A stretch of DNA of 64,000 nt from Candidatus Omnitrophota bacterium (lineage in GTDB: Bacteria > Omnitrophota > Gorgyraeia > Zapsychrales > Zapsychraceae), in the NCBI GenBank assembly GCA_015233115.1, contig JADFYJ010000001.1, forward strand, positions 3,084 through 67,083, read 5' to 3'. The notes under the pieces are model-generated. The model did not search any database, was not told where the DNA came from, and saw nothing but the letters and a program-made list of their open reading frames with translations. Both the position numbers and the translations under genes were made by a program. The stretch's first letter is position 1. Each line of letters begins with the position of its first letter. Shown here one piece after another: positions 6,388-55,770 of this stretch.

Positions 6388-6981
6388 ATGAAAATTAGCG
6401 GTGGACAATATAGGGGTAGGAATATTTATATGCCAGGGCATATCCGGCCAACGCAGCTGGTAACCCGTAAGGCTGTGTTTGATATTATTGGGCATGATTT
6501 AACGGGTTTGACTTTTTTAGAGCTTTTTGCCGGAAGCGGGGCTATGGGGTTGGATGCTTTGTCGCGTGGAGCGGAAAGGGTGATTTTTGTGGAAAAAGAT
6601 CCTAAATGCCTGGAGGTGATCAGGGAAAATTTGGGCATGCTGCCGCTGGAATTTGATTCAAAAGCCGGTTGGCCATATGAAATTCATGAAGGGGACGCTT
6701 TATTTACTTCCAAAGAGTTTTCCCGCCAAAATCGTAAATTTGATATTGTTTTTGTGGATCCGCCATATGGGATGGCTTTGGGAAAAAAGAGCTTGAAAAC
6801 CCTGGAAGCGTATGATATATTACACCCCACTTCGGAGCTGATTATACAACACGAAGAAGGCGAGATTCTACCTGAAAGTTTAGGTAGATTTTGTCTTTAT
6901 AAGCACCGATTATACGGGAAATCAGCGATTGATATATATCATGTGAGCGAGAATCAAATAAGTGACCAAGTGACAGAGTAA
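6388..6981 (+). CDS. rsmD: 16S rRNA (guanine966-N2)-methyltransferase RsmD
   Basis: SAM motif LELFAGSGAMGLDALSRGA and DPPY catalytic motif; conserved position upstream of coaD. Confidence 0.8.
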   Translation: MKISGGQYRGRNIYMPGHIRPTQLVTRKAVFDIIGHDLTGLTFLELFAGSGAMGLDALSRGAERVIFVEKDPKCLEVIRENLGMLPLEFDSKAGWPYEIHEGDALFTSKEFSRQNRKFDIVFVDPPYGMALGKKSLKTLEAYDILHPTSELIIQHEEGEILPESLGRFCLYKHRLYGKSAIDIYHVSENQISDQVTE

Positions 6982-7200
6982 CCGAGTAACAGAGAAAAAG
7001 CGATTGCTTAAAAGCGATAGATTGGCCAAGTTCTGTTATAGAAGTTAATAAGAAAAGTCTGTTAAAAATATTATAAGATTTGTTATTTCATGTTTAGGCG
7101 TATTTTATTAATTTTTATCTTTTGAAGAATTTTTGATTTTTTAACGTTTTATTGTTTTTTACTTTGTTACTCTGTTACTAGGTTACTCGGTTACTATTAA
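6962..7200. repeat. GTNAC octamer-array cassette, inverted arrays bracketing an AT-rich spacer
   Basis: left array gtgaccaagtgacagagtaaccgagtaacagag followed by gaaaaagcgattg; right array ttactttgttactctgttactaggttactcggttact ends 15 nt before the coaD ATG; 8-bp period. Confidence 0.75.
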
Positions 7201-7214
7201 GATAGGATAACCAG

Positions 7215-7700
7215 ATGTCTAAACGAGCACTGTATCCCGGGACTTTTGATCCGATTACCTTAGGGCATTTGGACGTGATCAAACGCGCGGCTATGGTTTT
7301 TGATGAGGTTGTGGTCGGAGTAGCTAGCAATCAGCGCAAGAATACGTTATTTTCGAAGGAAGAACGCGTGGCCATGATCCGGGAAGTGGTTAAAGATATT
7401 CCCCGGGTTAAGGTTGTTGACTTTGACGGTTTGGTTATTAATTTCGCGAAAAAGAATGATTTGCATGTGTTGATACGTGGTTTGCGGGCGGTATCGGATT
7501 TTGAATATGAATTACAAATGGCTTTAACCAACCGCAGATTGGCGGAAGATATTGAAACGGTTTTTTTGATGCCATCGCAGAATTATTTATTTTTATCATC
7601 GACGACGGTGAAAGAAGCTGCGTACTTAGGCGCGGATGTTTCGTCTTTTGTCCCTGAAGTCGCGGAACGTTTTTTAAAAGAAAAATTTAAGAAGAGCTAA
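7215..7700 (+). CDS. coaD: phosphopantetheine adenylyltransferase
   Basis: N-terminal YPGTFDPITLGHLD (T/HxGH nucleotidyltransferase motif); 161 aa. Confidence 0.9.
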   Translation: MSKRALYPGTFDPITLGHLDVIKRAAMVFDEVVVGVASNQRKNTLFSKEERVAMIREVVKDIPRVKVVDFDGLVINFAKKNDLHVLIRGLRAVSDFEYELQMALTNRRLAEDIETVFLMPSQNYLFLSSTTVKEAAYLGADVSSFVPEVAERFLKEKFKKS

Positions 7701-7704
7701 GCTG

Positions 7705-8115
7705 ATGAAAGTTATTGTACGCGATCTGGGTACGGAAGAAAATGTAATGACCGGTGAAATAAAACCGGAAATCGTCGGAAATGAAGACGCGATCAGGTTT
7801 ACGAAGCCAATCAAGGTAGCGGCTAAAGTTCAGCGGGTCGATAATACTTTGGTCGTTAAAGTGAAGGTGGATTCAGGTTTTGCGTCAATTTGCAGCCGCT
7901 GTGCCGAGGACGTGGTGAGTGATTTACAAAGTGAATTCTGGCTGGATTTTGATATACCAGCAGGAGTTGAAACTATAGAATTAGATGATGATATCAGGCA
8001 GGAAATTTTAGTGGGTTTGCCGGTCAAAATTTTATGTATGGAAAATTGTCAGGGGTTATGTCCCCGGTGTGGAAAAAATTTAAATCAAGTTCAATGTCAG
8101 TGTAAAAAGGATTAA
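7705..8115 (+). CDS. yceD: YceD/DUF177 family protein (23S rRNA accumulation protein)
   Basis: CxxC...CxxC C-terminal motif; conserved position directly upstream of rpmF-plsX. Confidence 0.75.
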   Translation: MKVIVRDLGTEENVMTGEIKPEIVGNEDAIRFTKPIKVAAKVQRVDNTLVVKVKVDSGFASICSRCAEDVVSDLQSEFWLDFDIPAGVETIELDDDIRQEILVGLPVKILCMENCQGLCPRCGKNLNQVQCQCKKD

Positions 8116-8122
8116 TTAAGCT

Positions 8123-8329
8123 ATGCCAAATCCAAAACGTCAACATTCCGTTCAACGACAACGTAAAAGACGCACTCATTTTAAAATTTCTGCTCCTAAT
8201 TTGAGCGTGTGTGCAAATTGTCAAAAACCGGTTATTTCTCACCGTATTTGTCCGTTTTGCGGCCATTATAAAGGTCAGATGATCGTTGATATGACTCCGG
8301 AAGTTAAAGAAGTAGAACCTAAAAAATAA
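8123..8329 (+). CDS. rpmF: 50S ribosomal protein L32
   Basis: MPNPKRQHS..R..KRR.H start and CANC...CPFCGHYKG zinc ribbon. Confidence 0.9.
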   Translation: MPNPKRQHSVQRQRKRRTHFKISAPNLSVCANCQKPVISHRICPFCGHYKGQMIVDMTPEVKEVEPKK

Positions 8330-8396
8330 TTAATTTTTTTGATAAATAGGGCGCTGTCCCCTATTTTCGGTTACTTTTACACAATGGGGAAATAAA

Positions 8397-9386
8397 ATGA
8401 AAATAGTCGTTGATGCCATGGGGGGGGATTACGCGCCGAAAAATGTTATTGCCGGCGTTGTAGAGGCGATCAAGGAATTTGATGTTCAAATTGTTTTGAC
8501 TGGCGTTAAAGAGCAAATCGAAAATGAGCTGAAGCTGTATCATTATCCTGCCGGCCGCATTGAAATTGTGCATACGGATGAAGTCGTAGGCATGGATGAA
8601 CCAGCTACAGTAACGATCCGGAAAAAACGTAATTCTTCTATATCCGTCGGTCTGCGCCTTTTAAAAGAACAAGGGTACGATGCCTTTATCAGTGCCGGGA
8701 ATACCGGTGCTGTGGTCGCAGCCGCGACTTTTAATTTAGGCATGCTTCCCGGCGTCAGCCGCCCGGCGATTGGTTTAGTTATTCCGACGCTTAAAGGCGT
8801 TGCTTTTATTATTGATGTGGGCGCGAATGCTGATCCTAAACCCGAACATTTATGTCAATCTGGAAAAATGTCTAAAGCCTATATGAATGCGGTTTTAGGT
8901 GTTCAGAATCCTACTGTCGGACTAGTCAACATCGGCGAAGAAGAGGGCAAGGGGACGGAATTTCAAAAAGAATCTTACCGCTTAATGTCTGAATCGATCA
9001 GTACGTTTATCGGAAATATTGAACCGAATGAAATTTATAAAGGAAAAAGTGATTGCATTATCTGCGGCGGTTTTGTGGGGAATGTTATATTAAAAGTGTC
9101 TGAAGGTTTGATGGAAGCCAGCAGTATACTCATCAAACGTGAGATCAAGAAAAGTCCGGTGGCTTTGCTGGGAGCGTTCTTGATGAAGAAAAAATTAACG
9201 CATATTAAAAAACTAGCCGACTACTCCGAATACGGAGGTGCTCCGCTTCTTGGTGTCAATGGAATTGTTATGATCAGTCACGGGCGTTCCAGTCCTAAAG
9301 CGATTAAAAACGCGATCCGGGCTTCGATTCGTGAGATCGAACATAAAATTCTCGACGTGATGGCCAAGGAAGTTTCCGCGAGTTAA
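8397..9386 (+). CDS. plsX: phosphate acyltransferase PlsX
   Basis: MKIVVDAMGGDYAPK... canonical PlsX N-terminus; 329 aa; position before fabH. Confidence 0.95.
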   Translation: MKIVVDAMGGDYAPKNVIAGVVEAIKEFDVQIVLTGVKEQIENELKLYHYPAGRIEIVHTDEVVGMDEPATVTIRKKRNSSISVGLRLLKEQGYDAFISAGNTGAVVAAATFNLGMLPGVSRPAIGLVIPTLKGVAFIIDVGANADPKPEHLCQSGKMSKAYMNAVLGVQNPTVGLVNIGEEEGKGTEFQKESYRLMSESISTFIGNIEPNEIYKGKSDCIICGGFVGNVILKVSEGLMEASSILIKREIKKSPVALLGAFLMKKKLTHIKKLADYSEYGGAPLLGVNGIVMISHGRSSPKAIKNAIRASIREIEHKILDVMAKEVSAS

Positions 9387-9389
9387 TCC

Positions 9390-10370
9390 ATGAAAAGTGT
9401 TGAAATTTTATCATTGGGGCATTATGTCCCTGAACGCATATTAACTAACCAAGATCTGGAAAAAATGGTGGATACCACTGATGAGTGGATTACTACCCGC
9501 ACCGGCATCAAAGAACGTCGTATTGCCGCTGATGATGAAAAGACCAGTGACATGGCCATTAAAGCGGCAGAAGAAGCATTAGCCCGCGCAAAATTTGATC
9601 CGCAAAATATTGATTTAATTGTGGTGGCTACGACGACTGCCGACAGTTCGTTTCCGGCCATGGCGTGTTTAGTGCAAAAATCTTTGAATGCAAAAAAGGC
9701 GGCCGCTTTTGACGTGGGAGCCGCGTGTTCTGGTTTTCTTTATGCGTTGACCACCGCCAAACAATTTTTATTATCCGGCATGTATCAAAATGCGTTAGTG
9801 ATCGCTGCGGATAAAATGAGCAAGGTCATGGATTGGAACGACCGCACGACGTGTGTGTTATTTGGCGACGGAGCGGCCGCGTGTTTGATTCAGACCAGTG
9901 ATAAACCCAATGAGGGTATTTTGTCAGACTATATTTTTGGACTTGGAGAATATAGTAATTATATGCAAATCATAGCGGAAGAAATAAAGCCCTTAGAACA
10001 AAAGAATATGCTGGTCCGCAGTCCTTATGTGGTCATGCAGGGGCCGGAATTATTTAAAGTCGCGGTGAATTCCATGGCTGAGGGCGTTGAGATCGCGGCG
10101 AAAAAAGCCGGGATATCCCTCGCGGATATTTCTCTGGTAATTCCGCATCAGGCGAATGACCGGATCATTTCCGCAGTGGCTAAAAAATTAGGAACGCCGC
10201 GCGAAAAAGTTTATGTCAATATAGAAAAATACGGAAACATGTCTGCCGCGTCCGTCGCCATAGCGCTCTACGAGGCCGTCGAAAGCGGAGCGGTAAAAAA
10301 AGGCGATTACATCGCTTTGGTAGTTTTCGGCGCCGGCCTAGTCAGCGCGGCGAACATCATTAAATGGTAA
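9390..10370 (+). CDS. fabH: 3-oxoacyl-ACP synthase III
   Basis: 326 aa; active-site Cys region (AACSGF), His (PHQAN) and Asn (GNMSAAS) motifs. Confidence 0.95.
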   Translation: MKSVEILSLGHYVPERILTNQDLEKMVDTTDEWITTRTGIKERRIAADDEKTSDMAIKAAEEALARAKFDPQNIDLIVVATTTADSSFPAMACLVQKSLNAKKAAAFDVGAACSGFLYALTTAKQFLLSGMYQNALVIAADKMSKVMDWNDRTTCVLFGDGAAACLIQTSDKPNEGILSDYIFGLGEYSNYMQIIAEEIKPLEQKNMLVRSPYVVMQGPELFKVAVNSMAEGVEIAAKKAGISLADISLVIPHQANDRIISAVAKKLGTPREKVYVNIEKYGNMSAASVAIALYEAVESGAVKKGDYIALVVFGAGLVSAANIIKW

Positions 10371-10404
10371 ACCGTAGGGCGCCCCTTGGTCGACCTGAAT
10401 AAAT

Positions 10405-10452
10405 AATAATTAACAACCAAAAACCACTAACCAAAAACCATCAACCAACAAT
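10405..10452. repeat. CAAC-heptad array (aaccaNNaacca...)
   Basis: acaaccaaaaaccactaaccaaaaaccatcaaccaaca directly upstream of fabD. Confidence 0.6.
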
Positions 10453-10461
10453 AATTCTTTT

Positions 10462-11370: not shown

Positions 11371-11443
11371 AAAATTCATAAGATTTTTGTTAATCCTGAA
11401 CGATAACCTTATATAATTAACTATTAAAGGATGGGTTAATTTT

Positions 11444-12847
11444 ATGTTATTGTATACAGGTTATATTTTTATCATTTTAAGCGGTATCCTGCTTATTTTT
11501 ATTTTTTTAAAACGTCGTCGTAAAAGTAATCAACTCAAAGCTAAAAGGCAGTATCAGGAAGTTCTGCGTAAAGCCTCTTTGGGTATGGGCCGCATCAAGG
11601 AACTGAAGCACTTATTGAAATTAACAGTTCACGTCGTAACCCGCGCGGTCAAGGTGGACTACTGCAGTGTGTATGTGTGGCATGAAGATTCAGGCCGTTT
11701 TGTCCTGCGTGCGGTGAAGAGCATAGACCCGCAAATTCAGTTTCAGAATGGGCTTCTGGCCGATTCATCATTAATTGAACACATCAAAGGCACGCATAAT
11801 CCGGTGTATATCGGCAGCAGTGAATTTAAGAAGCACGACGATTATGCGTTGAAATTAATCAAGGATTTGCAGTTGGTTCCCGCCGTCGCAGTTTTGCCGT
11901 GTTTTATTGATCAACAGCTTATCGCGGTCATTGGGTTGGGGAATAAACTTAACCGAACCAAATATTCTCATGATGATCTGATGATGTTTTCGATTCTGGC
12001 TAATCAAATTGGCCTGGCCATTGAAAACGCGCAATTTTATGAAAAGACCAGAATGATTCAGGAACAGCTAATCCGGGCGGAAAAAATGGCAACGATCGGG
12101 ACTATGGTGGACGGCATTTCGCATCAGATGAAAAACCGGCTGCATGCGATGGGCTTTATTACCGGAGACGCGTTGGATGTTCTAAGGACCAAGAAGTGGG
12201 GAGATACTCCGGTTGACATGAAAAATTTTATCGACGAAATGGAGTACTCTCTGGTTCGTTTGCAGGATAACATTAAACGCGGCGGAGAATTGACTGAAGG
12301 GCTATTAAAATATTCACGGAAAAATACGGAAAATTATGAGCACATTGAGTTAAAGAAATTATTGGAAACCTCACTCGAGATGTTGAAGTTTAAGATTAAG
12401 TTAGACACGGTTCAAATCCGGACGCTATGGCATGAAGCCAATCCTAAAATTTACGGGAATTACACGCAATTGCAGGAAGTTTTTTTTAATGTCATGGACA
12501 ATGCTTACGACGCGATGATGCAGCGCAAAAATTTTTTAAATGAAGAGGGATTCTCGCCTAAGATTGAGATTGAGACCTCTTTTAAAGATGAGGAGACGCA
12601 TATATTTTTCCGGGATAACGGGATGGGCGTACGCAAAGAACATGCCCGCCAATTATTTACTCCATTTTTTACGACGAAATTATCATCAAGTAAAAAAGGA
12701 ACCGGCTTGGGATTATTTGTCATCCGCCAAATCATTGAACGCAATCATAAAGGGCACGTTAATTTTTCTTCGATCTATTGCGCGGGGAGCGAGATGGAAA
12801 TTGTTTTGCCCGTGTCTTTTCCGTCGGAAATATTGCCGGGTGTATAA
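11444..12847 (+). CDS. sensor histidine kinase with GAF domain
   Basis: N-terminal TM, a GAF-like region, H-box (ISHQMKNRL) and HATPase_c N/G boxes (RDNGMGV, GTGLGL). Confidence 0.8.
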   Translation: MLLYTGYIFIILSGILLIFIFLKRRRKSNQLKAKRQYQEVLRKASLGMGRIKELKHLLKLTVHVVTRAVKVDYCSVYVWHEDSGRFVLRAVKSIDPQIQFQNGLLADSSLIEHIKGTHNPVYIGSSEFKKHDDYALKLIKDLQLVPAVAVLPCFIDQQLIAVIGLGNKLNRTKYSHDDLMMFSILANQIGLAIENAQFYEKTRMIQEQLIRAEKMATIGTMVDGISHQMKNRLHAMGFITGDALDVLRTKKWGDTPVDMKNFIDEMEYSLVRLQDNIKRGGELTEGLLKYSRKNTENYEHIELKKLLETSLEMLKFKIKLDTVQIRTLWHEANPKIYGNYTQLQEVFFNVMDNAYDAMMQRKNFLNEEGFSPKIEIETSFKDEETHIFFRDNGMGVRKEHARQLFTPFFTTKLSSSKKGTGLGLFVIRQIIERNHKGHVNFSSIYCAGSEMEIVLPVSFPSEILPGV

Positions 12848-13401: not shown

Positions 13402-13402
13402 T

Positions 13403-14602: not shown

Positions 14603-14613
14603 ATATTTCATAG

Positions 14614-14734
14614 CGCGCGGTAGGGCGGTTAGCATTTAAACCAAATCCTTCGCTCAAACAACCTTGGCGAAGCGCCAAGGAAACTCGCGCGGGGATTCGG
14701 TTTTAACGCCAACCTTGAGTTGGGGCACGCGGTT
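14614..14734 (+). repeat. ~120-nt structured intergenic element, family R1, copy 1 (variant central hairpin)
   Basis: gcgcgcggtagggcgg...tttaaaccaaatccttcgctcaaa-[ccttggcgaagcgccaagg]-...ggattcggttttaacgcc...ggcacgcggtt; the central stem differs from other copies but stays self-complementary. Confidence 0.8.
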
Positions 14735-14779
14735 ATTGGTTTGATTAGATTTTTCTTATTGCGTAGTTATAACTGCGAT

Positions 14780-15136: not shown

Positions 15137-15675
15137 AAGGTTGACGGAGTCATAACGGAAATATATTTAGCGAGTATTGAACCGTTATTTTTTATGACAT
15201 GTTCTTTAGTGGCGTCAAGATGGATGGAATGATTCTTGGGTAGACGGATTGGCTCCCCATCAATGAGAATTTCGATCTCACCGGACAAGACAAAAATAAA
15301 TTTTTCTGAACCAATAGATCCTTTTTCTTTATCAGTATGCCCTTTAGGCTGTAGTTGCACCAGTAGGGGGAGAAGGCGTCGATTGGAAACGCTTTGTGAT
15401 AAAATTTGAAAGCTAAGTTTAGGATTGGCAGCTAAAGCCGCGGCATGCGCCTGGATTTTTTTTTCTTCGTCTTCTCGTAACGCGGCTTGATATAGATCTG
15501 TTAGCGGAACTTGGAGCGAATTGGCAATGTGTAAATGAGAATCAACCGTGCCTTGCATTTTGCAGTTTTCCATGCGGCTTAAGGTGGCGACTTGTACGCC
15601 GCTTTTCTGGGATAATTCAACCAGGGTCATATTCTGGGCTTCACGAATTTCTTTAATTTTTTTACCGACAAACAT
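15133..15675 (-). CDS. XRE-family HTH + cupin-domain transcriptional regulator
   Basis: HTH_3 (IKEIREAQNMTLVELSQKSGVQVATLSRMEN) then a cupin beta-barrel; start moved to the internal ATG at 15675, which has an AAAGGA RBS (the ORF-track start at 15735 gives a 20-aa leader). Confidence 0.75.
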   Translation of the reverse strand: MFVGKKIKEIREAQNMTLVELSQKSGVQVATLSRMENCKMQGTVDSHLHIANSLQVPLTDLYQAALREDEEKKIQAHAAALAANPKLSFQILSQSVSNRRLLPLLVQLQPKGHTDKEKGSIGSEKFIFVLSGEIEILIDGEPIRLPKNHSIHLDATKEHVIKNNGSILAKYISVMTPSTL

Positions 15676-16146: not shown

Positions 16147-16185
16147 AACAACCAAAAACCATCAACCAAAAATCAACAATATCAC
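16147..16185. repeat. CAAC-heptad array
   Basis: aacaaccaaaaaccatcaaccaaaaatcaacaat immediately upstream of the 16190 CDS. Confidence 0.55.
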
Positions 16186-17924: not shown

Positions 17925-17990
17925 AAGTTTAGTTTTTTGTTTTTTCATTGTTACATTGTTACACTGTCACATTGTTACAATTAAAATTTA
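17925..17990. repeat. GTNAC octamer array
   Basis: cattgttacattgttacactgtcacattgttacaa, 8-bp period, ends ~15 nt before an AGGAGG RBS. Confidence 0.65.
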
Positions 17991-21542: not shown

Positions 21543-21775
21543 ACAAGGTCACAACGTCACAAAGTCACAAGGTCACAAAGGTCAATTTTGAAAAATATTG
21601 AAAAACGAATTATGTTTGTTATTAAATGTTTTAGATAAAAAATTAGCGTGTTGATTTATTGATCTTATTTTGATTATTTTTAATTTTTTTGTTACGTTTT
21701 GTTTTTTATATTTATTCCCTTGGTGACTTTGTGACTCTATGTGCAACCTTGAGTGTGCCTTGTGACCTAAAAGGA
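21543..21775. repeat. GTCAC octamer-array cassette (inverted arrays bracketing an AT-rich spacer)
   Basis: gtcacaacgtcacaaagtcacaaggtcacaaagg after the sbp stop; cccttggtgactttgtgactctatgtgc...ccttgtgacc before cysT. Confidence 0.7.
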
Positions 21776-22621: not shown

Positions 22622-22700
22622 AAGGTTTTTGGTTTTTGGAAAAAGCGATTATTTTCAACAACCGATAACCAACAACCAACAACCATCAACCATCAACCGA
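22622..22700. repeat. GTTG/CAAC heptad element
   Basis: ggtttttggtttttggaaaaagcgatt...caacaaccgataaccaacaaccaacaaccatcaaccatcaacc upstream of cysW. Confidence 0.65.
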
Positions 22701-23532: not shown

Positions 23533-23666
23533 AAGTGGTAAAGGGGGTAAAGGGGGTAAAGGAAAAAGCGATTGCTGGAAAAGCGATTGGTGGAAGAAAA
23601 ATGATTAAGGGATAAGTATTGAGCTTTTTGTTTTGTTGTTTTAATTTTTAAAAATGATTGACGCTG

Positions 23667-23772
23667 TTGTAGGGGCGATCTCCTGATCGCCCGTTACAAA
23701 ATTGTCGCTTTTAGTTATGTTGTTAATTTTAAAAAACGATTGATGCGGGCGATCAGGAGATCGCCCCTACGA
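23667..23772. repeat. palindromic TIR element (copy B)
   Basis: gttgtaggggcgatctcctgatcgcccgttacaaaattgtcgc ... gcgggcgatcaggagatcgcccctacgac. Confidence 0.7.
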
Positions 23773-28315: not shown

Positions 28316-28430
28316 ATGTGGTTTTTGGTTTTTGGATGTTGGTTTTTGGTTGTTGAGAAAAATCGCTTTTTCCTAAAACTAAAAACTCTCAACCATTAAC
28401 GGTGAAACCAACGATTTCAACAATTTCAAC
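28316..28430. repeat. GTTG/CAAC heptad element
   Basis: gtggtttttggtttttggatgttggtttttggttgttgagaaaaatcgctttttcctaaaactaaaaactctcaaccattaacggtgaaaccaacg. Confidence 0.65.
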
Positions 28431-28453
28431 ATTTATGAAAAACAGATTTAAAA

Positions 28454-28572
28454 CGCGCGCGGTAGGGCGGGTTGCATTTAAACCAAATCATTCGCTCAAA
28501 CAGCAGCTCCTAAGCGGAGCTGAACTCGCTCGGTGATTCGGTTTCAACGCTAACCTTGGAATTGGGCACGCG
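28454..28572 (+). repeat. R1 structured element, copy 2
   Basis: cgcgcggtagggcgggttgcatttaaaccaaatcattcgctcaaacagcagctcctaagcggagctgaactcgctcggtgattcggtttcaacgctaacc...gggcacgcgc. Confidence 0.8.
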
Positions 28573-30074: not shown

Positions 30075-30150
30075 ATTTTATGGTTTTTAGTTGTTGGTTG
30101 TTGAATGTAATCGCTTTTTCCAAAAACCATGAACCATCAACGATTCAAAT
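30075..30150. repeat. GTTG/CAAC heptad element
   Basis: ggtttttagttgttggttgttgaatgtaatcgctttttccaaaaaccatgaaccatcaacg. Confidence 0.65.
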
Positions 30151-31787: not shown

Positions 31788-31870
31788 AAGGGTTTTTGGT
31801 TGTTAGTTTTTGGTTGTTGGTTGACTAGACTAATTATTTTTTCCAAAAACCATCAACTATCAACAGTAAA
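31788..31870. repeat. GTTG/CAAC heptad element
   Basis: gggtttttggttgttagtttttggttgttggttgactagactaattattttttccaaaaaccatcaactatcaacag. Confidence 0.65.
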
Positions 31871-32301: not shown

Positions 32302-32394
32302 TTTTTTTGAGAAGATCGAAGTTAGACAATAGAAGATAGAAAAAGCGGTTGATTAAAGAAATAATTTTTATTTTTTTGGTTTTTAGTTTTTGCA

Positions 32395-32460
32395 TTGTCA
32401 CGTTGTTACGTTGTCACGTTGTTACGTTGTCACGTTGTCACGTTGTCACGTTGTTACTAT
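32395..32460. repeat. tandem 16-bp repeat (ttgtcacgttgttacg)x~4, GTNAC octamer type
   Basis: tgtcacgttgttacgttgtcacgttgttacgttgtcacgttgtcacgttgtcacgttgttac immediately upstream of the protease gene. Confidence 0.8.
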
Positions 32461-36672: not shown

Positions 36673-36845
36673 TTTATTTTGGTTTTTGGTTGATAGTTTT
36701 TGGTTGATGGTTATGAAATGATTCTCCAAAAATTAAAAACCTTTTACAACAACATATTTTATTTAATTGGTTATTGGTTTCGGTTATTTAAATATTTCGT
36801 TTTTTCCAAAAACCACTAACCATCAACAATCAACCAGCAAAATTA
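36672..36845. repeat. GTTG/CAAC heptad element (two modules)
   Basis: ttttggtttttggttgatagtttttggttgatggtt...ctccaaaaattaaaaacc and ggttattggtttcggtt...cgttttttccaaaaaccactaaccatcaacaatcaaccagc. Confidence 0.65.
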
Positions 36846-36854
36846 ATATTTATC

Positions 36855-39539: not shown

Positions 39540-39660
39540 GCGCGCGGTTGGGCGGTTTGCATTTAAACCGAATCCTTCGCTCAAACAGCAGCTCCTAAGC
39601 GGAGCTGAACTCGCTCGGTGATTCGGTTTCAACGCCAACCTTGTATTTTGGCACGCGGTT
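39540..39660 (+). repeat. R1 structured element, copy 3
   Basis: gcgcgcggttgggcggtttgcatttaaaccgaatccttcgctcaaacagcagctcctaagcggagctgaactcgctcggtgattcggtttcaacgccaacc...ggcacgcggtt. Confidence 0.85.
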
Positions 39661-40560: not shown

Positions 40561-40697
40561 GGTAGGGATGTGTGCAATGGGCGTCGTTTCAACCAAGTCC
40601 TTCGCTCAAACAGCAGCTCCTAAGCGGAGCTGAACTCGCTCGGGGACTTGGTTTTCACTCTGCCTGAGCAAGCGCAAGGTTTGTGGCATGCAAACTA
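40561..40697 (+). repeat. R1 structured element, copy 4 (divergent flanks, conserved central hairpin)
   Basis: ...tttcaaccaagtccttcgctcaaacagcagctcctaagcggagctgaactcgctcggggacttggttttcac... Confidence 0.7.
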
Positions 40698-43328: not shown

Positions 43329-43421
43329 TCTCGATTGGAAATTGACGCCAAGCATTTAACCGGCGATAATTTTTTCTTTCGAGCAATTTGTTTCAAGTCG
43401 AGATCTGACACCATTTTTTAT
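43313..43421 (+). terminator. large hairpin element (arms ~22 nt) followed by a T-run, terminator-like, copy 1
   Basis: aaaaaatggtgtctgatctcga ... tcgagatctgacaccatttttta; the first arm overlaps the last codons of the radical SAM gene. Confidence 0.5.
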
Positions 43422-43424: not shown

Positions 43425-43545
43425 GCGCGCGGTAGGGCGGTTTGCATTTAAACCAAATCATTCGCTCAAACAGCAGCTCCGAAGCGGAGCTGAACTCGCT
43501 CGGTGATTTGGTTTCAACGCTAACCTTGGATTTGGGCACGCGGTT
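43425..43545 (+). repeat. R1 structured element, copy 5
   Basis: gcgcgcggtagggcggtttgcatttaaaccaaatcattcgctcaaacagcagctccgaagcggagctgaactcgctcggtgatttggtttcaacgctaacc...ggcacgcggtt. Confidence 0.85.
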
Positions 43546-45550: not shown

Positions 45551-45650
45551 CGCAGGCGATCAGGAGATCGCCCCTACGAAAAATGCGTTGTTTTAATAAT
45601 ATCATCGCGGTTGTACGGGCGATCTCCCGATCGCCCGTAACAAAAGTATC
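45551..45650. repeat. palindromic TIR element (copy C)
   Basis: gcaggcgatcaggagatcgcccctacga ... gtacgggcgatctcccgatcgcccgtaacaaaagtatcg. Confidence 0.7.
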
Positions 45651-47911: not shown

Positions 47912-47913
47912 GT

Positions 47914-48189: not shown

Positions 48190-49069
48190 GGGACCTAAAA
48201 CTCCACAAAAATGTGAGTCATGCGCGCGGAATACTATTTTAGCCGGTCTTTTAGCAAATTTTTTTCTTGCGGCTTTTAAGCTTTTTGTTGGTTTTTTGGG
48301 ACGCAGCCGCGCTTTGATCGGAAGCGGTTTATGCAACTTGAGCGATGTGGGTTCGTCGTTTGTGGTTATCATTGGTATCAAATTTTCCAAGAAGCCGGCA
48401 GACCATCGTTATCCATATGGATATGGTAAAGTCGAGTTTATCGCTCAAGTCGTCATGAGCGTTACCATGATTTTGGGTACAGTTGCGCTTATTTTAAGCT
48501 CGTTCATTGTCATTGCTAAACGGACGCTGGTGGTTCAGCATATGGTGGTATTTTTTGTGGCTATTTTGAGCGCCATCATTAATGCTTTGCTTTTTAAATT
48601 TTCACATTGCGGCAGTAAAGAGCTTAATAGCCCGTCGTTAAAGGCGCATGCTGAACATAACAAGATTGACGTTATTTCTTCTTTACTGGTTGCGATCGGG
48701 GTTATTGTGACCCGTAAAGGTATGCATTGGGTTGATCCAGCAATTGCTATTTTCGAGTGCGCCCATGTTTTGCATGGCAGTATGGGTATTTTAAAAGAGG
48801 GGCTTAAAGGGATTATGGATACCAATCTTCCTGACAGCTATCTGGAAAACGTAAAAAATACTGTTTTACGGGTTAAAGGGGTTAACAAAGTAAATCTGGT
48901 TAAAGGCCGCCAGTCTGGACGGCATATTGTGTTAAACATTATCATGCAATTGAACCCTGATATTACGGTTCTGGACGCTAAGAAGATTAATCAGTCAGTA
49001 AAAGCCTATTTACGCGGTGAAGATAAACATATTGGTAACATTTCAATACAGGTCGTTCCAGCAGAGTAA
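48179..49069 (+). CDS. cation diffusion facilitator (CDF) transporter, MamB/MamM-like
   Basis: 6 TM with a CDF metal site (H/D in TM2/TM5: ...NLSDVGSS..., ...SLLVAIGV...), C-terminal cytoplasmic domain; ATG 48179 chosen (TTG 48173 possible). Confidence 0.75.
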   Translation: MKHKGPKTPQKCESCARNTILAGLLANFFLAAFKLFVGFLGRSRALIGSGLCNLSDVGSSFVVIIGIKFSKKPADHRYPYGYGKVEFIAQVVMSVTMILGTVALILSSFIVIAKRTLVVQHMVVFFVAILSAIINALLFKFSHCGSKELNSPSLKAHAEHNKIDVISSLLVAIGVIVTRKGMHWVDPAIAIFECAHVLHGSMGILKEGLKGIMDTNLPDSYLENVKNTVLRVKGVNKVNLVKGRQSGRHIVLNIIMQLNPDITVLDAKKINQSVKAYLRGEDKHIGNISIQVVPAE

Positions 49070-49320
49070 CAAAGTAACCGAGTAACAGAGTAACAGAGAA
49101 AAAGCGGTTATAGGGATAGGCGATGATTAGAAAAGCGATTGGTTTGAAGTAAAACGATAAATAAATAAGGTGAAAATTGCTTTATTTTAATTTATAAATT
49201 GTGAAATTGAATTTATGAGATTTCTTGTTTGATAATTTTTGTCGATAGTTTTTGCTTTTTTGTTTTTTTACTCGGTTACTAGGTTACCCGGTTACTTTGT
49301 TACTTTTAAGTTAGGATAAG
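49066..49320. repeat. GTNAC octamer-array cassette bracketing an AT-rich spacer
   Basis: gtaacaaagtaaccgagtaacagagtaacagag+gaaaaagcggtt ... ttttactcggttactaggttacccggttactttgttact; right array ends ~15 nt before the ATG. Confidence 0.75.
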
Positions 49321-49322
49321 CC

Positions 49323-50237: not shown

Positions 50238-50288
50238 AGTAGCAGAGCAAAAGCGAATGATTAAAGAATGAAAAAGCGATCAGGAAAA

Positions 50289-50411
50289 GCGCGCGGTTGG
50301 GGCGGTTTGCATTTAAACCAAATCCTTCGCTCAAACAGCAGCTCCTAAGCGGAGCTGAACTCGCTCGGGGATTCGGTTTCAACGCAAACCTTGTGTATGG
50401 GGCACGCGATT
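50289..50411 (+). repeat. R1 structured element, copy 6
   Basis: gcgcgcggttggggcggtttgcatttaaaccaaatccttcgctcaaacagcagctcctaagcggagctgaactcgctcggggattcggtttcaacgcaaacc...ggcacgcgatt. Confidence 0.85.
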
Positions 50412-50491
50412 GAGGATGTACGTGAAGATATCGACATTTTATTACTTGGTTACTTTGTCACTATCAAAATTAATATATAAACGGAGGCAAT

Positions 50492-51373: not shown

Positions 51374-51493
51374 ACAAGCTGACAAAAAAAGTGATACTGT
51401 GACAACGCAATAAAGATGTTTTTTGTGGATCCCCGATTCAAGCATTCGGGGATGACATATTTAATTTTAATTTATTTTTTGTTTTTACTACAT

Positions 51494-51533
51494 ACGACAT
51501 GCTACATACTACATGCTAGTCGAAAGGTAATTT
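51494..51533 (+). promoter_or_regulatory. conserved upstream motif shared by both lemA-family genes (cgacatgctacat..ctacatgc..tcgaaagg)
   Basis: compare 1475-1528 upstream of lemA: cgacatgctacatgccatgtactacatgcgtgaataatcgaaaggag. Confidence 0.4.
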
Positions 51534-52325
51534 ATGGTTAATAGAATGTCTGCGAATTTGAAGCGGCTTTTTCCGAAAGATTTGGAAGAGCTTAAGCCGG
51601 TTAAAATACATTGGTGGAGTAAAATCGATTTTAGCAATTTACAAAAAAAAGAAGGCCAGTGGATGATCATTGCGGCTTTGATCATTATCCTTCCGGGGAT
51701 TTATTACTACAATAAATTCATCGGGCTGTCCCGCTTTACAGAAATGGAACAGCATCAGATCGAAGTCCAATTACAGAGAAGAAGAAATCTTTCTGTTAAT
51801 TTAGCAAAAATGGTGCTTGCGTACGCCGAGCATGAACGGGTGATGTATGAATACATGGCTGACAAGCGGGCCGCGACTTTGCAAAAAACTGACACTCTGC
51901 TTGATTCACTTAAAAAGAGCGGGTTGGGTGATTTGTCAAAAATAAAGCCTAGCGATATGGAAGGCGCTTTATCTAAATTTATGGCATTGGCTGAAGCTTA
52001 CCCGGACCTTAAATTAAGCACAAATTTTCAGGATTTGATGAATGCGTTAGTGATCAGCGAAAACCGCATCGCAGATAGTCGCATGGAATATAATAAAGCC
52101 GCCAGCCTTTTTCATGCCGCTGTTCGTGAAATTCCCGCGTGTGTGTACGCGTTTATTTTCGGATATCATGAGAAACAGTTTCATTACGCGTCAGTTGATA
52201 AAGATCTTGATAAACCGAATTTAATAGATTATGAAGTGCCGAAAACACCGAATGAAGTACCAGCGCAGATTGATTTACTAAAAGTAGGGACTGAAGCACC
52301 GAAAATACCGTATGTAGTGAAGTGA
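51534..52325 (+). CDS. LemA-family membrane protein, MamQ-like
   Basis: TM then LemA core (FTEMEQHQIEVQLQRRRNLSVNL...YPDLK); 263 aa; second LemA paralog, inside the MGC. Confidence 0.7.
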   Translation: MVNRMSANLKRLFPKDLEELKPVKIHWWSKIDFSNLQKKEGQWMIIAALIIILPGIYYYNKFIGLSRFTEMEQHQIEVQLQRRRNLSVNLAKMVLAYAEHERVMYEYMADKRAATLQKTDTLLDSLKKSGLGDLSKIKPSDMEGALSKFMALAEAYPDLKLSTNFQDLMNALVISENRIADSRMEYNKAASLFHAAVREIPACVYAFIFGYHEKQFHYASVDKDLDKPNLIDYEVPKTPNEVPAQIDLLKVGTEAPKIPYVVK

Positions 52326-52330
52326 TAAAA

Positions 52331-52365
52331 AATTATAATGTTGGTTTTTGGTTGATGGTTTTTGG
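52331..52365. repeat. GTTG heptad array
   Basis: atgttggtttttggttgatggtttttggataaag. Confidence 0.55.
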
Positions 52366-52435
52366 ATAAAGAATAAATGTTATTTCAAAAAATAAAGAAA
52401 CTATGAACTATTAACCGTGAAACTTGGAGAACCCA

Positions 52436-54238
52436 ATGGCGATAAATATCCGAAAATCTTTGCAAGAAGATAAGCTGGCACGAGTCAAAAGCTTTCCGTT
52501 TTTGGAAACAGCTATTGTCTTGGTCGTCATCGTGATTCTGACCGCGCTTTTTCTGGATACCCGCAATGCGCCGCAACCCGGAGCGCCGCGTTTCGCGCAA
52601 GCAGGGGGTACCAACGCCATTGAATTTGATATCATCACAGTTAATACGATTATCGCGAAAGATTTTAATCTGCCGACTGTTTCTGGAGTATTGGTGAACA
52701 ATGTTCCGACCGGTTCTGCCCGCCGGCTGATTGATATCCGCCGCGGAGATGTGATTTTGAAATACAATAATGTTGATGTCCAGTCCGCGAATCATTTAGC
52801 GTATTTGATGTCTCAGAATAAATCCGGCGATACCATCAGTTTTGTTGTGTCGCGAAATGGCAGAGTACTAAATATGTCTTATAAAATTCCCGCGAATGCC
52901 GGTATTGATCTTTTCGGTGAGAGCGGCAGGAATATTCTCGTGGTGCTGGTGATCGTGATTGTTACCTTTACCATGCTTTTTCTCAATCTTTTTAACCGGA
53001 CGGTATGTGTGACGTTGGGCGCGGTTTTGATGTTGGTTGCGGGTTCAGTCTTTGGTTTTTATAATCAGAGCGAAGCGTTTGATTCTATCCGCATGAGCCC
53101 GATATTTATTTTTATGGGCATGAGTATTTTTGCTATTTTTCTTGAAGATCTGCGGTTCTTTGAATATGTGGCTAAAAAGATTGTCGTGGTTTCAAAAGCT
53201 GACGCGATCAAGGTTGTTTTTTCAATGTGTATTTTTACATTTATCGCTTCGGCTTTAGTCAATAATATTTCGGTTATTTTGGTTATAGTCCCAATCACCA
53301 TTTACGTCGCACGGGGCATGAGTTTTGATCCTATTCCGGTCGTTATCGCGGAAGTTATGTCGTCGGTCATTGGTGGCAATATGACGCCGATTGGCGATTT
53401 TTCGAACATGTTAATGGCCTCCAGCGCCGGCTTGACATTCCTGAATTTTTTGGTAGTGATGGGCCCTATCTGCATTATATTTCTAGCTGTGTTTCTCTGG
53501 TATCTTTGGTATTTTGAGTTGCGGAATATGAAAAAGGTCAAATCTTTAAAGATGGAAAAAGAATTTTTGACCAAATTCGAGAATGAGCTTAAAGCTATGC
53601 ATATGGATTGGCTTAATATCAAAAAAGTCCTTCTGATTCTGGGAGGGGTTTTGGTAGCTTTTATCGTATTACCGTTTTTTAAAGTGCATCTAGCACCAAT
53701 CGCTTTAGGCGGGGGCTTCCTTTTATTAGCCATTGAAAATCATAAGGCGAAAGAAGTTTTAAAAAAGATCAGCTTGACCGATATTTTATTTTTTGTCGCG
53801 CTTTTTTTGATCGTCGGAGGTGCTTTATACGCAGGCCTTTTGAAAGTTATTTCTGATGCGTTAATTTCCATGTCTATGGGCAATAAACTTTTATATCCTA
53901 TCCTGTTAATGATCGCCACTGCTGTGTTTACTGCGCTTTTAAATTCTGGACCAGCGACCGCGTTTTTAGTCCCGATTGTTTTAGCGTCTGGTTTCGCGGA
54001 TTTTTCTGATGTGGTGTGGTGGGCTCTGAATTTGGGATCTATCGCCGGAGCATGCGCGTGTATTTCCGGAGCCAGCGCTGGTATTATTGCGCAAACCTTG
54101 GTCGAGGAGCAGGTGACTGATTTTAAAAATAAAGAAGGTTTGACTTTTAAAAGTTATAGCCGCCGGGGAATTCCGGTTGCTATTATTATTCTCGTCATTT
54201 CAAGTCTTTATTTAGCTTTATTAAGCATTATCCCCTAG
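52436..54238 (+). CDS. PDZ domain fused to an ArsB/NhaD-type ion permease (MamN-like candidate)
   Basis: ATG 52436 with GGAGA RBS; N-terminal TM + PDZ (VSGVLVNNVPTGSARRLIDIRRGDVI), then ~11 TM with GPATAFLVPIV and SGASAGIIAQ anion-permease-like loops. Confidence 0.55.
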   Translation: MAINIRKSLQEDKLARVKSFPFLETAIVLVVIVILTALFLDTRNAPQPGAPRFAQAGGTNAIEFDIITVNTIIAKDFNLPTVSGVLVNNVPTGSARRLIDIRRGDVILKYNNVDVQSANHLAYLMSQNKSGDTISFVVSRNGRVLNMSYKIPANAGIDLFGESGRNILVVLVIVIVTFTMLFLNLFNRTVCVTLGAVLMLVAGSVFGFYNQSEAFDSIRMSPIFIFMGMSIFAIFLEDLRFFEYVAKKIVVVSKADAIKVVFSMCIFTFIASALVNNISVILVIVPITIYVARGMSFDPIPVVIAEVMSSVIGGNMTPIGDFSNMLMASSAGLTFLNFLVVMGPICIIFLAVFLWYLWYFELRNMKKVKSLKMEKEFLTKFENELKAMHMDWLNIKKVLLILGGVLVAFIVLPFFKVHLAPIALGGGFLLLAIENHKAKEVLKKISLTDILFFVALFLIVGGALYAGLLKVISDALISMSMGNKLLYPILLMIATAVFTALLNSGPATAFLVPIVLASGFADFSDVVWWALNLGSIAGACACISGASAGIIAQTLVEEQVTDFKNKEGLTFKSYSRRGIPVAIIILVISSLYLALLSIIP

Positions 54239-54247
54239 GAGGATTAG

Positions 54248-55267
54248 ATGAGCAGTGAAAGCAATGAATTTAAAGATAATTGGGTAGCTTACGCGAAAAT
54301 AGGCGGGGCTATCTTAATCATAATTATTGGGTTGATCGCGATGTTCAGTTCGTCAACACCGAAAGGGCCAGTGGCCGCACAGACGATGCAAGTCGCAGCG
54401 GTCGGCGCAGCACCAGGTGCAGTTGCAGGCACTGCGGTTGATTTGCCAGCTTGGTGGATATTGCTTTTGTCCGGTTTTGCGATTGGATGTTACGGGACTA
54501 TCGTAGGTATTGGCGGCGGGCCGATTATTCTGCCATTGTTAGTTTTCTTTTATGGGTGGGAAAATGAACTTTTAGTCGCGACCTCACTTTTTATTGTATT
54601 GTTAAATGCCGGCTCAGGCTGTGCCGGGTACGCGTCTCAAAAACGTATTGATTATAAAGGTGGTATCAAATTTACCTTGGCAGCCATGCCCGGAGCATTG
54701 ATATCGAGTTTTACGCATCATTTGGTTAACCTGACTTTTTTTAATGTTATTTTCGGTATCTTTTTGATCTTCCTGGCTGTTTATACAATTTTCAGCATTG
54801 GCAAATTAAAGAAAGATGAGACCCAGGATCCGGAATATGTGAAAGAAGCAAAAGCTTCTGGATTTCGCCGTGTTAAATTTATGGATAATTTCGGAGTTAA
54901 GTATGATTTTTACGCGAATGATGGTTTAGGTATCGCGATGAATCTTTTGCTGGGTTTTTTCTGCGGGTTTCTAGGCATTGGCGGCGGGGTGTTTCAAGTT
55001 CCGATTCTGATATTTTTGTTAAGATATCCGTCGCATATCGCGACCGCAACCAGCCACTTTGTAACTCTGTTGACTTGCGCGATCGCGCTGTTACCGCACG
55101 TATTTTTAGGTAATGTCTGTTACGCGGAAGCCATATGGATGGGCATTGGCGTTATTGTAGGCGCTCAAGCCGGAGCGCGCATAGCACCGAAGTTGAACAC
55201 GAAAATCACTTTGTATTTATTCGTGATCATTTTAGTGGTGCTGGCAATAAAATTATTCTTGGTGTAG
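54248..55267 (+). CDS. TauE/SafE-family permease (MamO-Cter-like)
   Basis: duplicated GIGGGPIILPLL / GIGGGVFQVPIL motifs typical of TauE/SafE; GGAGG RBS. Confidence 0.7.
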   Translation: MSSESNEFKDNWVAYAKIGGAILIIIIGLIAMFSSSTPKGPVAAQTMQVAAVGAAPGAVAGTAVDLPAWWILLLSGFAIGCYGTIVGIGGGPIILPLLVFFYGWENELLVATSLFIVLLNAGSGCAGYASQKRIDYKGGIKFTLAAMPGALISSFTHHLVNLTFFNVIFGIFLIFLAVYTIFSIGKLKKDETQDPEYVKEAKASGFRRVKFMDNFGVKYDFYANDGLGIAMNLLLGFFCGFLGIGGGVFQVPILIFLLRYPSHIATATSHFVTLLTCAIALLPHVFLGNVCYAEAIWMGIGVIVGAQAGARIAPKLNTKITLYLFVIILVVLAIKLFLV

Positions 55268-55288
55268 CCAATAACAGGAGGAACAGTT

Positions 55289-55471
55289 ATGGAATCAATT
55301 TTATTTATTTTAATTGCTCTTTTAGACATTATTGCCATTGTGGATGTGCTGCGAGGTGGTTTATCGGGAGCTAAAAAAATTTTATGGATCGTTTTTATCG
55401 TCATAACTTTTGGATTAGGAATGTTTCTGTATTTTTTGTTAGGCCGTCCGGATCAGGTGCAAAATAATTAA
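55289..55471 (+). CDS. small membrane protein (PLDc_N-like, 60 aa)
   Basis: two TM, KKILWIVFIV...GLGMFLYFLLGR pattern; AGGAGG RBS. Confidence 0.4.
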   Translation: MESILFILIALLDIIAIVDVLRGGLSGAKKILWIVFIVITFGLGMFLYFLLGRPDQVQNN

Positions 55472-55472
55472 T

Positions 55473-55770
55473 ATTGAGTGACCGAGTAACCGAGTAACCG
55501 AGTAACAATGTGACAGAGTAAAAGCGATTGGCAAAACCTAGCTATTTGAAGAATTATTGCAAAAAAAATGCAGGCAGCTCAGAATTTGAAAGAAGAACGG
55601 CGAAAATAAATCGCATGGCTCAATGCGGGTAAATATTTTAAGCTTTGGTTTACAGTATTTGTTAAGTTTTTTTTATTGTTATTTTTACTTTAAGTTTTTT
55701 TAATTGAAGCTTTTTCGAATTATTTTACTTTGTTACTTGGTTACTCGGTTACTCGGTTACTTTTTCAAAG
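55473..55770. repeat. GTNAC octamer-array cassette bracketing an AT-rich spacer
   Basis: gtgaccgagtaaccgagtaaccgagtaacaatgtgacagagtaaaagcgattgg ... ttttactttgttacttggttactcggttactcggttact then an AGGAG RBS. Confidence 0.75.

Follow-up and report, generated by a model that had tools for sequence, protein, structure and literature searches.

Over 35 years, scattered observations have recorded hairpins of short tandem repeats at gene junctions but no mechanism for them; examples are the short tandemly repeated repetitive (STRR) sequences of cyanobacteria, the TAACTGA repeats and the 'global regulator sites' of Geobacter. Here, we describe elements of this kind in a stretch of 64,000 nt from Candidatus Omnitrophota (assembly GCA_015233115.1, contig JADFYJ010000001.1, positions 3,084-67,083, forward strand), which is called the window below. 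The elements are arrays of octamers with the core GTNAC, most of them in inverted pairs on either side of an AT-rich spacer; we refer to such a pair with its spacer as a cassette, and to its arrays as arms. In the searchable literature, we found no description of a comparative demonstration of insertion, of an occurrence in an Omnitrophota magnetosome cluster, or of PF05635 genes consistently enclosed by such arms in different phyla.

In Geobacter metallireducens, class 1 paired sites consist of four tandem octamers, GTTGCTYN, present on opposite strands at a variable distance, and class 3 sites of five heptamers, for example between proB and proA; their authors read them as sites for regulators of the IHF/HU type, without functional data (PMC2700814). 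The layout is identical to that of the window cassettes (four to five tandem 7-8-mers, inverted pairs, variable spacing, intergenic positions including some within operons, absence from sister species), while the unit sequences differ and no link to PF05635 is reported (PMC2700814). The STRR sequences are intergenic short tandem units, often inverted, with the potential for hairpins between genes transcribed together (hupS and hupL, for example), and their function is unknown (PMC2670836). They are heptamers of other sequence from heterocystous cyanobacteria, whereas the window has strict 8-bp GTNAC octamers in an Omnitrophota genome. MacGregor (2015) described TAACTGA repeats within a few nucleotides of start codons in Beggiatoaceae, Cyanobacteria and Bacteroidetes, which place stops in all three frames, overlap upstream stop codons and have a lineage-specific, patchy distribution (PMC4679880). 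The unit is nearly the same as in the window, where the octamer GTAACNGA contains TAACNGA, and the three-frame stops, the overlap with the upstream stop and the closeness to downstream starts also agree; however, the TAACTGA repeats are heptamers, nearly always in direct arrays (with one inverted case) that read in the sense direction toward the start codon, whereas the window has an 8-bp period, inverted pairs and the reverse complement 15-22 nt before starts. With STRR, TAACTGA and the Geobacter paired sites as architectural precedents, the cassettes are not categorically new. To our knowledge, none of these precedents has a tested function.

Two further systems are close in other respects. 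The PF05635/TIGR02436 family of four-helix-bundle (Avd-like) proteins was first found within the intervening sequences of 23S rRNA. These sequences are reportedly excised by RNase III (a result ascribed to Burgin et al., 1990), and those of Leptospira are said to contain a conserved open reading frame (ORF), as described by Ralph and McClelland in 1993. Like them, the cassettes are inserts, probably inside a transcription unit, bounded by inverted repeats able to form a long stem, and the same octamer arms (GTCACAAG/CTTGTGAC) bracket PF05635 genes in other genomes. The window copies differ in lying within mRNA operons and not in helix 25 or 45 of rRNA, in being ORF-less and in having tandem octamer arrays as arms; RNase III excision would extend to them by analogy. 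Repetitive extragenic palindromic sequences (REPs), by comparison, are 20-40-bp near-identical palindromes mobilised by RAYT transposases, and their stem-loops reportedly stabilise upstream mRNA in malEFG (attributed to Newbury et al., 1987). The REP, REPIN and BIME elements of Enterobacteria and Pseudomonas share with the cassettes a place as extragenic palindromes in operons, for example at a binding-protein/permease junction, the formation of mRNA stem-loops (predicted in the case of the cassettes), and a lineage-specific, dispersed distribution. The window differs in its tandem arrays of variable units and its long non-homologous loops, and no RAYT was identified among the part of the ORFs that was scanned.

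Octamer arrays and their pairing

The window was scanned mechanically for at least four GTNAC cores spaced exactly 8 bp apart. This gave nine arrays (6962-6990, 7166-7194, 17950-17978, 21548-21576, 32397-32457, 49066-49094, 49275-49303, 55478-55514 and 55732-55760); a tenth, weak array of three imperfect units lies at 50441-50461. Arrays with at least four cores were absent from 50 shuffles of the window, and none occurred in the window at other periods from 5 to 13. A relaxed scan (three units, at most one mismatch) returned 28 matches against 0.02 expected, all within the nine arrays or the weak one, and TRF recovered the same arrays independently. The 8-bp GTNAC arrays that an earlier sequence-only reading of the window had pointed out are therefore real.

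Eight arrays form four inverted pairs flanking AT-rich spacers, exactly at the gene junctions named in that reading: rsmD/coaD, sbp/cysT, the two CDF transporter genes (mamM/mamB-like, here CDF1/CDF2) and a small ORF followed by a PDZ gene. The gene names are borne out by a Pfam scan (RsmD-like, CoaD, solute-binding protein, permease, two CDF transporters, PDZ, HtrA-like protease, TPR), and a cassette does separate the two CDF genes (49066-49303). At sbp/cysT the inverted pair is present, but the right partner of the array at 21548 is degenerate (21723-21766). In the four regions a GT[A/G]AC-NNN array overlaps or immediately follows a stop codon, and the reverse-complement array, NNN-GT[T/C]AC, shortly precedes the ribosome-binding site (RBS) of the next gene. 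Some details needed correction. The right arrays had been placed about 15 nt before the RBS; the measured distances are ~8-12 nt to the RBS and 15-22 nt to the ATG. The motif GAAAAAGCGATTG was said to follow the left array, and does so in three of the four pairs, the sbp/cysT pair having only gaaaaacgaatt. Single upstream arrays were confirmed at 17950 and 32397, and the one before the TPR gene has only three imperfect units. Almost all genes of the window are on the + strand, and the GC skew is strong and uniformly positive throughout (1-64000, +0.12 to +0.19); probably, the whole window belongs to a single replichore and its genes run in the direction of replication.

The two arms of each pair are complementary, with duplexes of 33-45 pairs at -44 to -63 kcal/mol across the four cassettes, and the whole cassettes folded as RNA give z = -7.1, -5.9, -6.8 and -3.7 relative to shuffles. 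There are two arm subfamilies, GTWAC (three cassettes) and GTSAC (sbp/cysT), complementary only within each. Even the central N matches across arms, GTWAC with GTWAC and GTCAC with GTGAC, which fits a hairpin and not a set of independent binding sites. In each case, folding is stronger for the sense than for the antisense strand (-73.8/-37.1, -59.5/-44.8, -72.2/-48.7 and -94.9/-70.7 kcal/mol), and the arms contain 16 G.U pairs on the sense strand vs 3 on the antisense strand. This asymmetry suggests single-stranded folding of the sense strand.

The arms and spacers given below, and the unpaired arrays, are placed on the + strand. The left arm of the rsmD/coaD cassette (6962-7004) reads GTGACCAA GTGACAGA GTAACCGA GTAACAGA, followed by the in-phase degenerate unit GAAAAAGC and GATTG, with the rsmD stop codon (6979-6981) falling in unit 3. 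Its spacer (7005-7157; 23% GC between the strict arrays, 6991-7165) has a purine-rich left half and a pyrimidine-rich right half, which extend the stem imperfectly, and the right arm (7158-7194) has five units, TTTAC and then four GTTAC, ending 20 nt before the coaD ATG with the RBS TAGGA between. In the sbp/cysT cassette, the left arm (21548-21584; GTCACAAC GTCACAAA GTCACAAG GTCACAAA GGTCA) is separated by a spacer (21585-21722, 17% GC between strict arrays) from the degenerate right arm (21723-21766), which consists of GTGACTTT GTGACTCT, two decayed units and CTTGTGAC, and ends 17 nt before the cysT-like ATG. The CDF1/CDF2 cassette has a left arm (49066-49108) of GTAACAAA GTAACCGA GTAACAGA GTAACAGA GAAAAAGC GGTT, in which the TAA of unit 1 is the CDF1 stop (49067-49069), a spacer (49109-49266, 26% GC) with a second AAAAGCGATTG at 49131, and a right arm (49267-49303) of five units, 20 nt from the CDF2 ATG. 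The small-ORF/PDZ cassette has five GTRAC units, the in-phase unit GTAAAAGC and GATTG in its left arm (55478-55529), a spacer of 29% GC (55530-55723) and a right arm (55724-55760) of five units, 19 nt from the ATG of the PDZ gene.

Several properties recur. In two cassettes (rsmD/coaD and CDF1/CDF2), an array unit supplies the TAA that ends the upstream gene, and GAAAAAGC or GTAAAAGC serves as the in-phase degenerate inner unit of the left arm, with TTTTTTAC as its counterpart on the right. Purines are enriched in the left part of the spacers (17-29% GC) and pyrimidines in the right part, which extends the stem imperfectly. The comparison of spacers that the sequence-only reading had called for showed that only the ends align; the interiors of the four spacers could not be aligned and are not homologous. 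Unit sequence differs among cassettes of this one genome (GTAACNGA, GTCACAAN, GTCACGTT, GTTACAYT). All right arms, like the three unpaired arrays, terminate 15-30 nt ahead of a start codon. Of the unpaired arrays, the one at 17950-17978 (GTTACATT GTTACACT GTCACATT GTTAC) lies 22 nt before the ATG of a 197-aa gene, and the weak one at 50441-50461 (ATTACTTG GTTACTTT GTCAC) lies 30 nt before the TPR (MamA-like) gene. The third, an array of eight units (TTGTCACG/TTGTTACG, 32397-32457), lies 22 nt before the ATG of the HtrA/MamE-like protease gene; in front of it are GAAAAAGCGGTTG (32338-32350) and an AGAAGAT run that is not complementary to it, and the region as a whole (32338-32457) looks like a cassette with mismatched arms.

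No Rfam family, and hence no rRNA, was matched anywhere in the window, and all copies lie between protein-coding genes. In the one region scanned, promoter and terminator matches were no commoner than in shuffled sequence; AAAAGCGA-TTGNNN looks like an A-tract joined to a -35 element, with no consistent -10 downstream. Provision of stops in three frames was considered as the purpose of the left arm and rejected as a general feature: arms of GTCAC polarity hold no stops, so the three-frame stops are a by-product of GTRAC polarity. Integron attC sites, CRISPR and telomere-like repeats were dropped on reading the sequence, which has none of their defining features. Compared with attC, the arm pairs surround non-coding DNA, and the flanks are syntenic housekeeping or magnetosome genes common to relatives; no search was aimed at an integrase.

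Insertion relative to other Omnitrophota

A close relative, GCA_015233195.1 (L001; L numbers are our labels for genomes and loci), has a CoaD 86% identical to that of the window and full synteny over window positions 1-18.6 kb. In L001, rsmD and coaD overlap by 8 bp and the gap after serS, the junction of the 17950 array, is 12 bp; neither arrays nor AAAAGCGATT were found in the syntenic region. Relative to L001, other sequence stands in place of the last ~ten codons of the window rsmD, and the protein terminates within the array. Four further Omnitrophota genomes, L122, L123, L126 and L127, have a syntenic magnetosome cluster. The CDF1/CDF2 gap is 8 bp in L122, 3 bp in L126 and 11 bp in L127, L123 has an unrelated 98-bp hairpin at this place, and the small-ORF/PDZ gap in L126 is 16 bp. 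The comparison covers these five related genomes, with the sbp/cysT junction outside it. At every comparable junction it indicates that the cassettes are lineage-specific insertions and not conserved regulatory sites, because the orthologous junctions have gaps of -8 to 16 bp or an unrelated hairpin. The synteny check proposed in the sequence-only reading thus came out in favour of insertion. That reading had also suggested site-specific recombination, for which we saw neither a recombinase near the cassettes nor target-site duplications, nor anything attC-like.

The order of the cluster is conserved in five Omnitrophota genomes (window ~29700-56400): HTH_17, MamI, the HtrA/MamE-like protease, magnetochrome (MCR) proteins, the two CDF transporters, TPR/MamA-like, LemA, CitMHS-PDZ, TauE and PDZ. 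The window version is enlarged by the inserted repeats. L122 (GCA_015233705.1, 52% GC) has compact inverted CAGCNNT heptamer hairpins of its own between stop and RBS at five magnetosome-cluster junctions (1398-1467, 5684-5747, 7257-7338, 11799-11883 and 15583-15674), with folds of -22 to -42 kcal/mol.

Similar arms in other phyla

One genome per species was scanned for four phased GTRAC cores, which gave at least 120 loci in many phyla; conservation of the core among these matches is by construction, because the search pattern fixes it. Among the matches listed, a clear inverted partner array is present at about a dozen loci. In a Saprospiraceae genome (L026), a stop codon is followed by (GGTTWCAG)9, 70 bp, (CCTGTAAC)7, 4 nt and an ATG. 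Inverted arms enclose 140 bp of AT-rich DNA in L083 and a 15-nt loop in L044, and in another Omnitrophota genome (L058) a GTCAC hairpin made of arms only separates stop from start (z = -6.1).

In a member of the Planctomycetia (L080), inverted arrays flank a 117-aa ORF that matches PF05635, the '23S rRNA intervening-sequence protein', with E = 6e-36, and also has a TIGR02436 match in NCBIfam and a weak Avd match. Among the matches listed, all five PF05635 genes are flanked by short tandem-repeat arrays; two of the five lie apart from the array that retrieved the locus. For a less biased test, four loci were fetched by protein alone in a homolog search (L128, L129, L135 and L136). All four have (GTCACAAG/GACACAAG)n upstream and (CTTGTGAC)n downstream of the PF05635/TIGR02436 gene, which is co-oriented with its neighbours, and from the right arm to the next start codon there are 9-42 nt. 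In total, PF05635 genes are bracketed by short tandem-repeat arrays in 9/9 cases examined and co-oriented in 6/6 whose neighbours were checked. The phyla in which like arms bracket such genes are Omnitrophota, Planctomycetota, Chloroflexota, Cyanobacteria and Bacteroidota; in Dolichospermum (L057), the bracketing arrays are heptamers.

The sbp/cysT units GTCACAAN and NTTGTGAC are identical to units in L080, L128, L129, L135 and L058, and the left-arm units in particular are those of the upstream arms in L128, L135, L080 and L058. The GTAACNGA cassettes match the PF05635 cassettes only in period, core and layout. Protein subfamily and arm unit co-vary, a subfamily of 71-82% identity occurring in Omnitrophota, Planctomycetia and a metagenome-assembled genome labelled Actinobacteria, which fits a unit moving horizontally together with its arms. 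The cassette-boundary or non-autonomous mobile element suggested in the sequence-only reading is supported on two counts, absence from the orthologous junctions of five relatives and like arms bounding a gene-carrying cassette in other phyla. A phage vehicle was also considered and showed no sign: none of the viral loci with GTRAC arrays among the matches listed (at least 120 loci) has a PF05635 gene.

Several loci have further features. L129 has, at 2290-2930 and in this order, a GTCAC-octamer hairpin of arms only (z = -7.5), a tRNA-Arg(CCT) gene and a PF05635 cassette with the same arms, an arrangement that recurs on 10 contigs from several samples. The PF05635 cassette of L135 (2440-2885) lies in an rnf operon, between FMN_bind (rnfG-like) and Rnf-Nqr (rnfE-like) genes, and its right arm abuts an AAGGAGG RBS. 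In the Prevotella/Alistipes loci L047 and L059, a single left GTAACAAR arm stands opposite four tandem 62-66-bp units, each with a right arm (L047, 330-1050), and compound hairpins 430 bp apart adjoin a GGGAGTTTA nonamer array (L059, 2850-4050).

Proposed explanation and alternatives

The arrays are real, their arms pair, they are inserted relative to five relatives, and their unit, period, inverted layout and placement (stop, arm, insert, arm, RBS) are common to the gene-carrying cassettes. The explanation we prefer, with belief and doubt about evenly balanced, is that the GTNAC arrays pair as the two arms of long inverted repeats, which bound ORF-less, lineage-specific cassettes within operons, that these cassettes belong to a cross-phylum class similar to intervening sequences, and that the arms pair in mRNA. 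The cassettes would have been inserted exactly between co-directional, probably co-transcribed genes. The class would have arms of inverted tandem 7-8-mer arrays and come in three forms, namely arms only, arms with an AT-rich spacer (as in the window) and arms with a PF05635/TIGR02436 four-helix-bundle gene. When the operon is transcribed, the arms would pair into an RNA stem of ~40 bp, looping out the insert and bringing the upstream stop codon beside the downstream RBS. RNase III might then cut the stem as in rRNA intervening sequences, separating the cistrons; alternatively, the stem could protect the upstream message as a barrier of the REP kind, and the sbp/cysT junction parallels malE-malF of E. 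coli in lying between a binding-protein and a permease gene. Either way, the insert would be tolerated inside operons.

More tentatively, and with more doubt than belief, we suggest that inverted GTSAC/GTWAC octamer arrays define an undescribed, horizontally spreading, operon-invading cassette. Its autonomous form would encode a multimeric PF05635 protein whose subunits each recognise one unit of the phased repeats in single-stranded nucleic acid and which brings about RNA-level excision or cassette movement; the window copies would be ORF-less derivatives within a magnetosome cluster. Should this hold, the very large orphan family PF05635 would have a function and STRR-like repeats an explanation.

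A number of points weigh against the proposal of paired, PF05635-related cassettes. No PF05635 homolog was found among the window ORFs or in a six-frame translation of the 64 kb, a search of the window spacers for a decayed PF05635 gene gave noise only, and the window copies contain no ORF. The link to the gene-carrying cassettes is one of arms and layout and is closest for sbp/cysT, and no gene-carrying cassette with GTAACNGA arms was found. GTRAC octamer arrays are common in large DNA collections, viral contigs included (at least 120 loci in each scan), and for that reason the core is not diagnostic. The arrays at 17950, 32397 and 50441 have no complementary partner, and the arms of another locus (L020) are also non-complementary. 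A simple stem leaves the conserved GAAAAAGCGATTG motif, with its residual GATTG, unaccounted for. Given the GC skew of the window, mutational bias could be an alternative source of the strand asymmetry, and the PF05635 cassettes have no consistent sense bias, three folding better in the sense and two in the antisense strand. Co-transcription, RNA folding and RNase III cleavage of the cassettes are all inferred, the cleavage by analogy with rRNA intervening sequences.

Among other explanations, the palindromic core and strict phase could be taken as operator arrays in double-stranded DNA, with a dimeric regulator or a nucleoid protein of the IHF/HU kind bound to GTNAC sites around a promoter-bearing spacer, to loop or silence it. 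The right arrays do keep a fixed 15-22 nt from start codons, and the matching layout in G. metallireducens (four tandem octamers, opposite strands, variable distance) was read in this way, as IHF/HU global-regulator sites (PMC2700814). Nevertheless, we judge this very unlikely, as five relatives keep the genes yet lack cassettes at the same junctions, the unit varies between cassettes within one genome, the arms are mutually complementary at variable positions, on B-DNA an 8-bp spacing turns each site ~274 degrees from the one before, the one region scanned shows no enrichment of sigma-70-like promoter matches, and the downstream genes share no function. The recognition array for a DNA-binding protein that the sequence-only reading had offered is neither supported nor dismissed by these data; its remark that an 8-bp phase is atypical for binding along one helical face is fair, but would no longer matter for an active form that is single-stranded. 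Equally improbable in our view is control of translation from the 5' untranslated region, in which the pyrimidine-rich right arrays would be bound by an RNA-binding protein or the ribosome (S1, Csp, CsrA-like) and the left arrays would be incidental. It would account for the position of right arms and unpaired arrays alike at 15-30 nt before start codons, and the heptamer TAACNGA within GTAACNGA recalls the TAACTGA repeats (PMC4679880). The orientation is opposite, however, with TAACNGA-sense arrays following stops and the reverse complement preceding starts; recognisable RBSs are present downstream of the arrays; and the complementary left arms, the 150-250-bp spacers and the gene-carrying cassettes are left unaccounted for.

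Presence and absence between relatives, inverted ends and AT-rich non-coding interiors are also what would be expected of ordinary miniature inverted-repeat transposable elements, whose terminal inverted repeats happen to be tandem octamers and which are moved by a transposase encoded elsewhere in the genome. The ends are conserved, including the sub-terminal GAAAAAGCGATTG, and two copies have a similar right end (TATTAAGATAGGATAAC / TTTTAAGTTAGGATAAG). We still consider such elements unlikely: the flanks of the four cassettes, read directly, have no target-site duplication or shared direct repeat, only the ends align between copies and the interiors are not homologous, the arms vary in unit number and sequence, and no transposase was noticed among the proteins scanned, which were part of the window ORFs. 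Moreover, the cargo between such arms in other phyla is a four-helix-bundle protein and not a transposase, and a metagenome scan for the junction of an arm with GAAAAAGCGRTT gave no further copies, only two chance matches, both inside coding sequence. The arrays might also have no function, as slippage-prone microsatellites or palindromes building up neutrally at the gene junctions of a compact genome, which we rate as unlikely too, if marginally less so. Many phyla, and viral contigs too, are rich in octamer arrays with a GTNAC core, every Omnitrophota lineage carries junk-like elements peculiar to it at its junctions (the CAGCNNT hairpins of L122, REP-like hairpins in L123), and the heptamer elements of the window, described below, fold weakly. 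Slippage alone, however, cannot make matched inverted arrays 150-250 bp apart or the recurrent stop-arm...arm-RBS geometry, and identical arm units bracketing a conserved protein gene (71-82% identical) across phyla would be left unaccounted for. An insert that is selfish but tolerated fits the paired-cassette explanation, and pure neutrality does not. No rival covers both the matched arms and the gene-carrying relatives as well as that explanation does.

In the window and its relatives, elements of this kind are recent insertions rather than conserved operators. They can come between overlapping genes, bringing a new stop codon with them and sitting just before an RBS, and the link to PF05635 leads to a testable hypothesis on a mobile, operon-tolerated cassette and on the role of PF05635. 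Within the magnetosome cluster, they lie between the CDF transporter genes and before the genes for the MamE-like protease and the MamA-like TPR protein; they may uncouple the expression of these genes, which is relevant to transplanting such clusters.

Other repeats and inserts in the window

The sequence-only reading had treated the octamers as a repeat family of their own. They are a family, but not a closed one: many other junctions have heptamer arrays (GGTTKTT ... AACMAAC), and one a nonamer array, often around AAAAGCGATT in either orientation. AAAAGCGRTT occurs 16 times in the window vs 1.3 expected. Because the heptamer and nonamer arrays share AAAAGCGATT and the heptamers fold weakly, the octamers are the best-paired flavour of a broader repeat habit of this genome.

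The heptamer family has the layout (GGTTKTT)n, GGAAAAAGCGATT in either orientation, (AACMAAC)n, between stop codons and RBSs, and is found at 394-487, 10414-10448, 16147-16179, 22624-22698, 28319-28431, 30081-30140, 31791-31870, 36677-36850, 52341-52420 and 60846-60930. It is absent from L001, and its folds are weak (z = -0.8 and -2.7). At 23537-23595, the nonamer array, (GGTAAAGGG)x3, lies between a stop codon, which it directly follows, and two AAAAGCGATTG(C/G)TGG copies in tandem; no partner array complementary to it was seen.

A structured-looking repeat of ~110 nt (gcgcgcggtagggcgg...ttcgctcaaacagcagctcctaagcggagctgaactcgctcgg...gggcacgcg) occupies six intergenic sites, all on the + strand and without an Rfam match, with cores at 28491-28533, 39576-39618, 40601-40643, 43461-43503 and 50326-50368 and a diverged copy near 14620-14740. 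The REP-like palindrome GGGGCGATCNCCTGATCGCCC (1372-1393, 1452-1472, 23672-23692, 23747-23767, 45554-45574, 45616-45636 and 63890-63911) occurs mostly as inverted doublets 60-80 bp apart, in the manner of REPINs, and L001 has one similar hairpin (gcgggcacaaagtattgtgcccctacg). Two copies of caatttgtttcaagtcgagatctgacaccatttttt, at 43384-43419 and 56415-56450, each end a longer imperfect hairpin. Arrays of 7- and 14-mers (CTACATACGACATG / TACTACA) lie at 1480-1510 and 51486-51518, just before two start codons. By reading, small ORFs at 5847-6387 (between recG and rsmD) and 59651-60261 resemble toxin-antitoxin pairs, and the pair at 5847-6387 would be another insertion, because recG and rsmD are 3 bp apart in L001.

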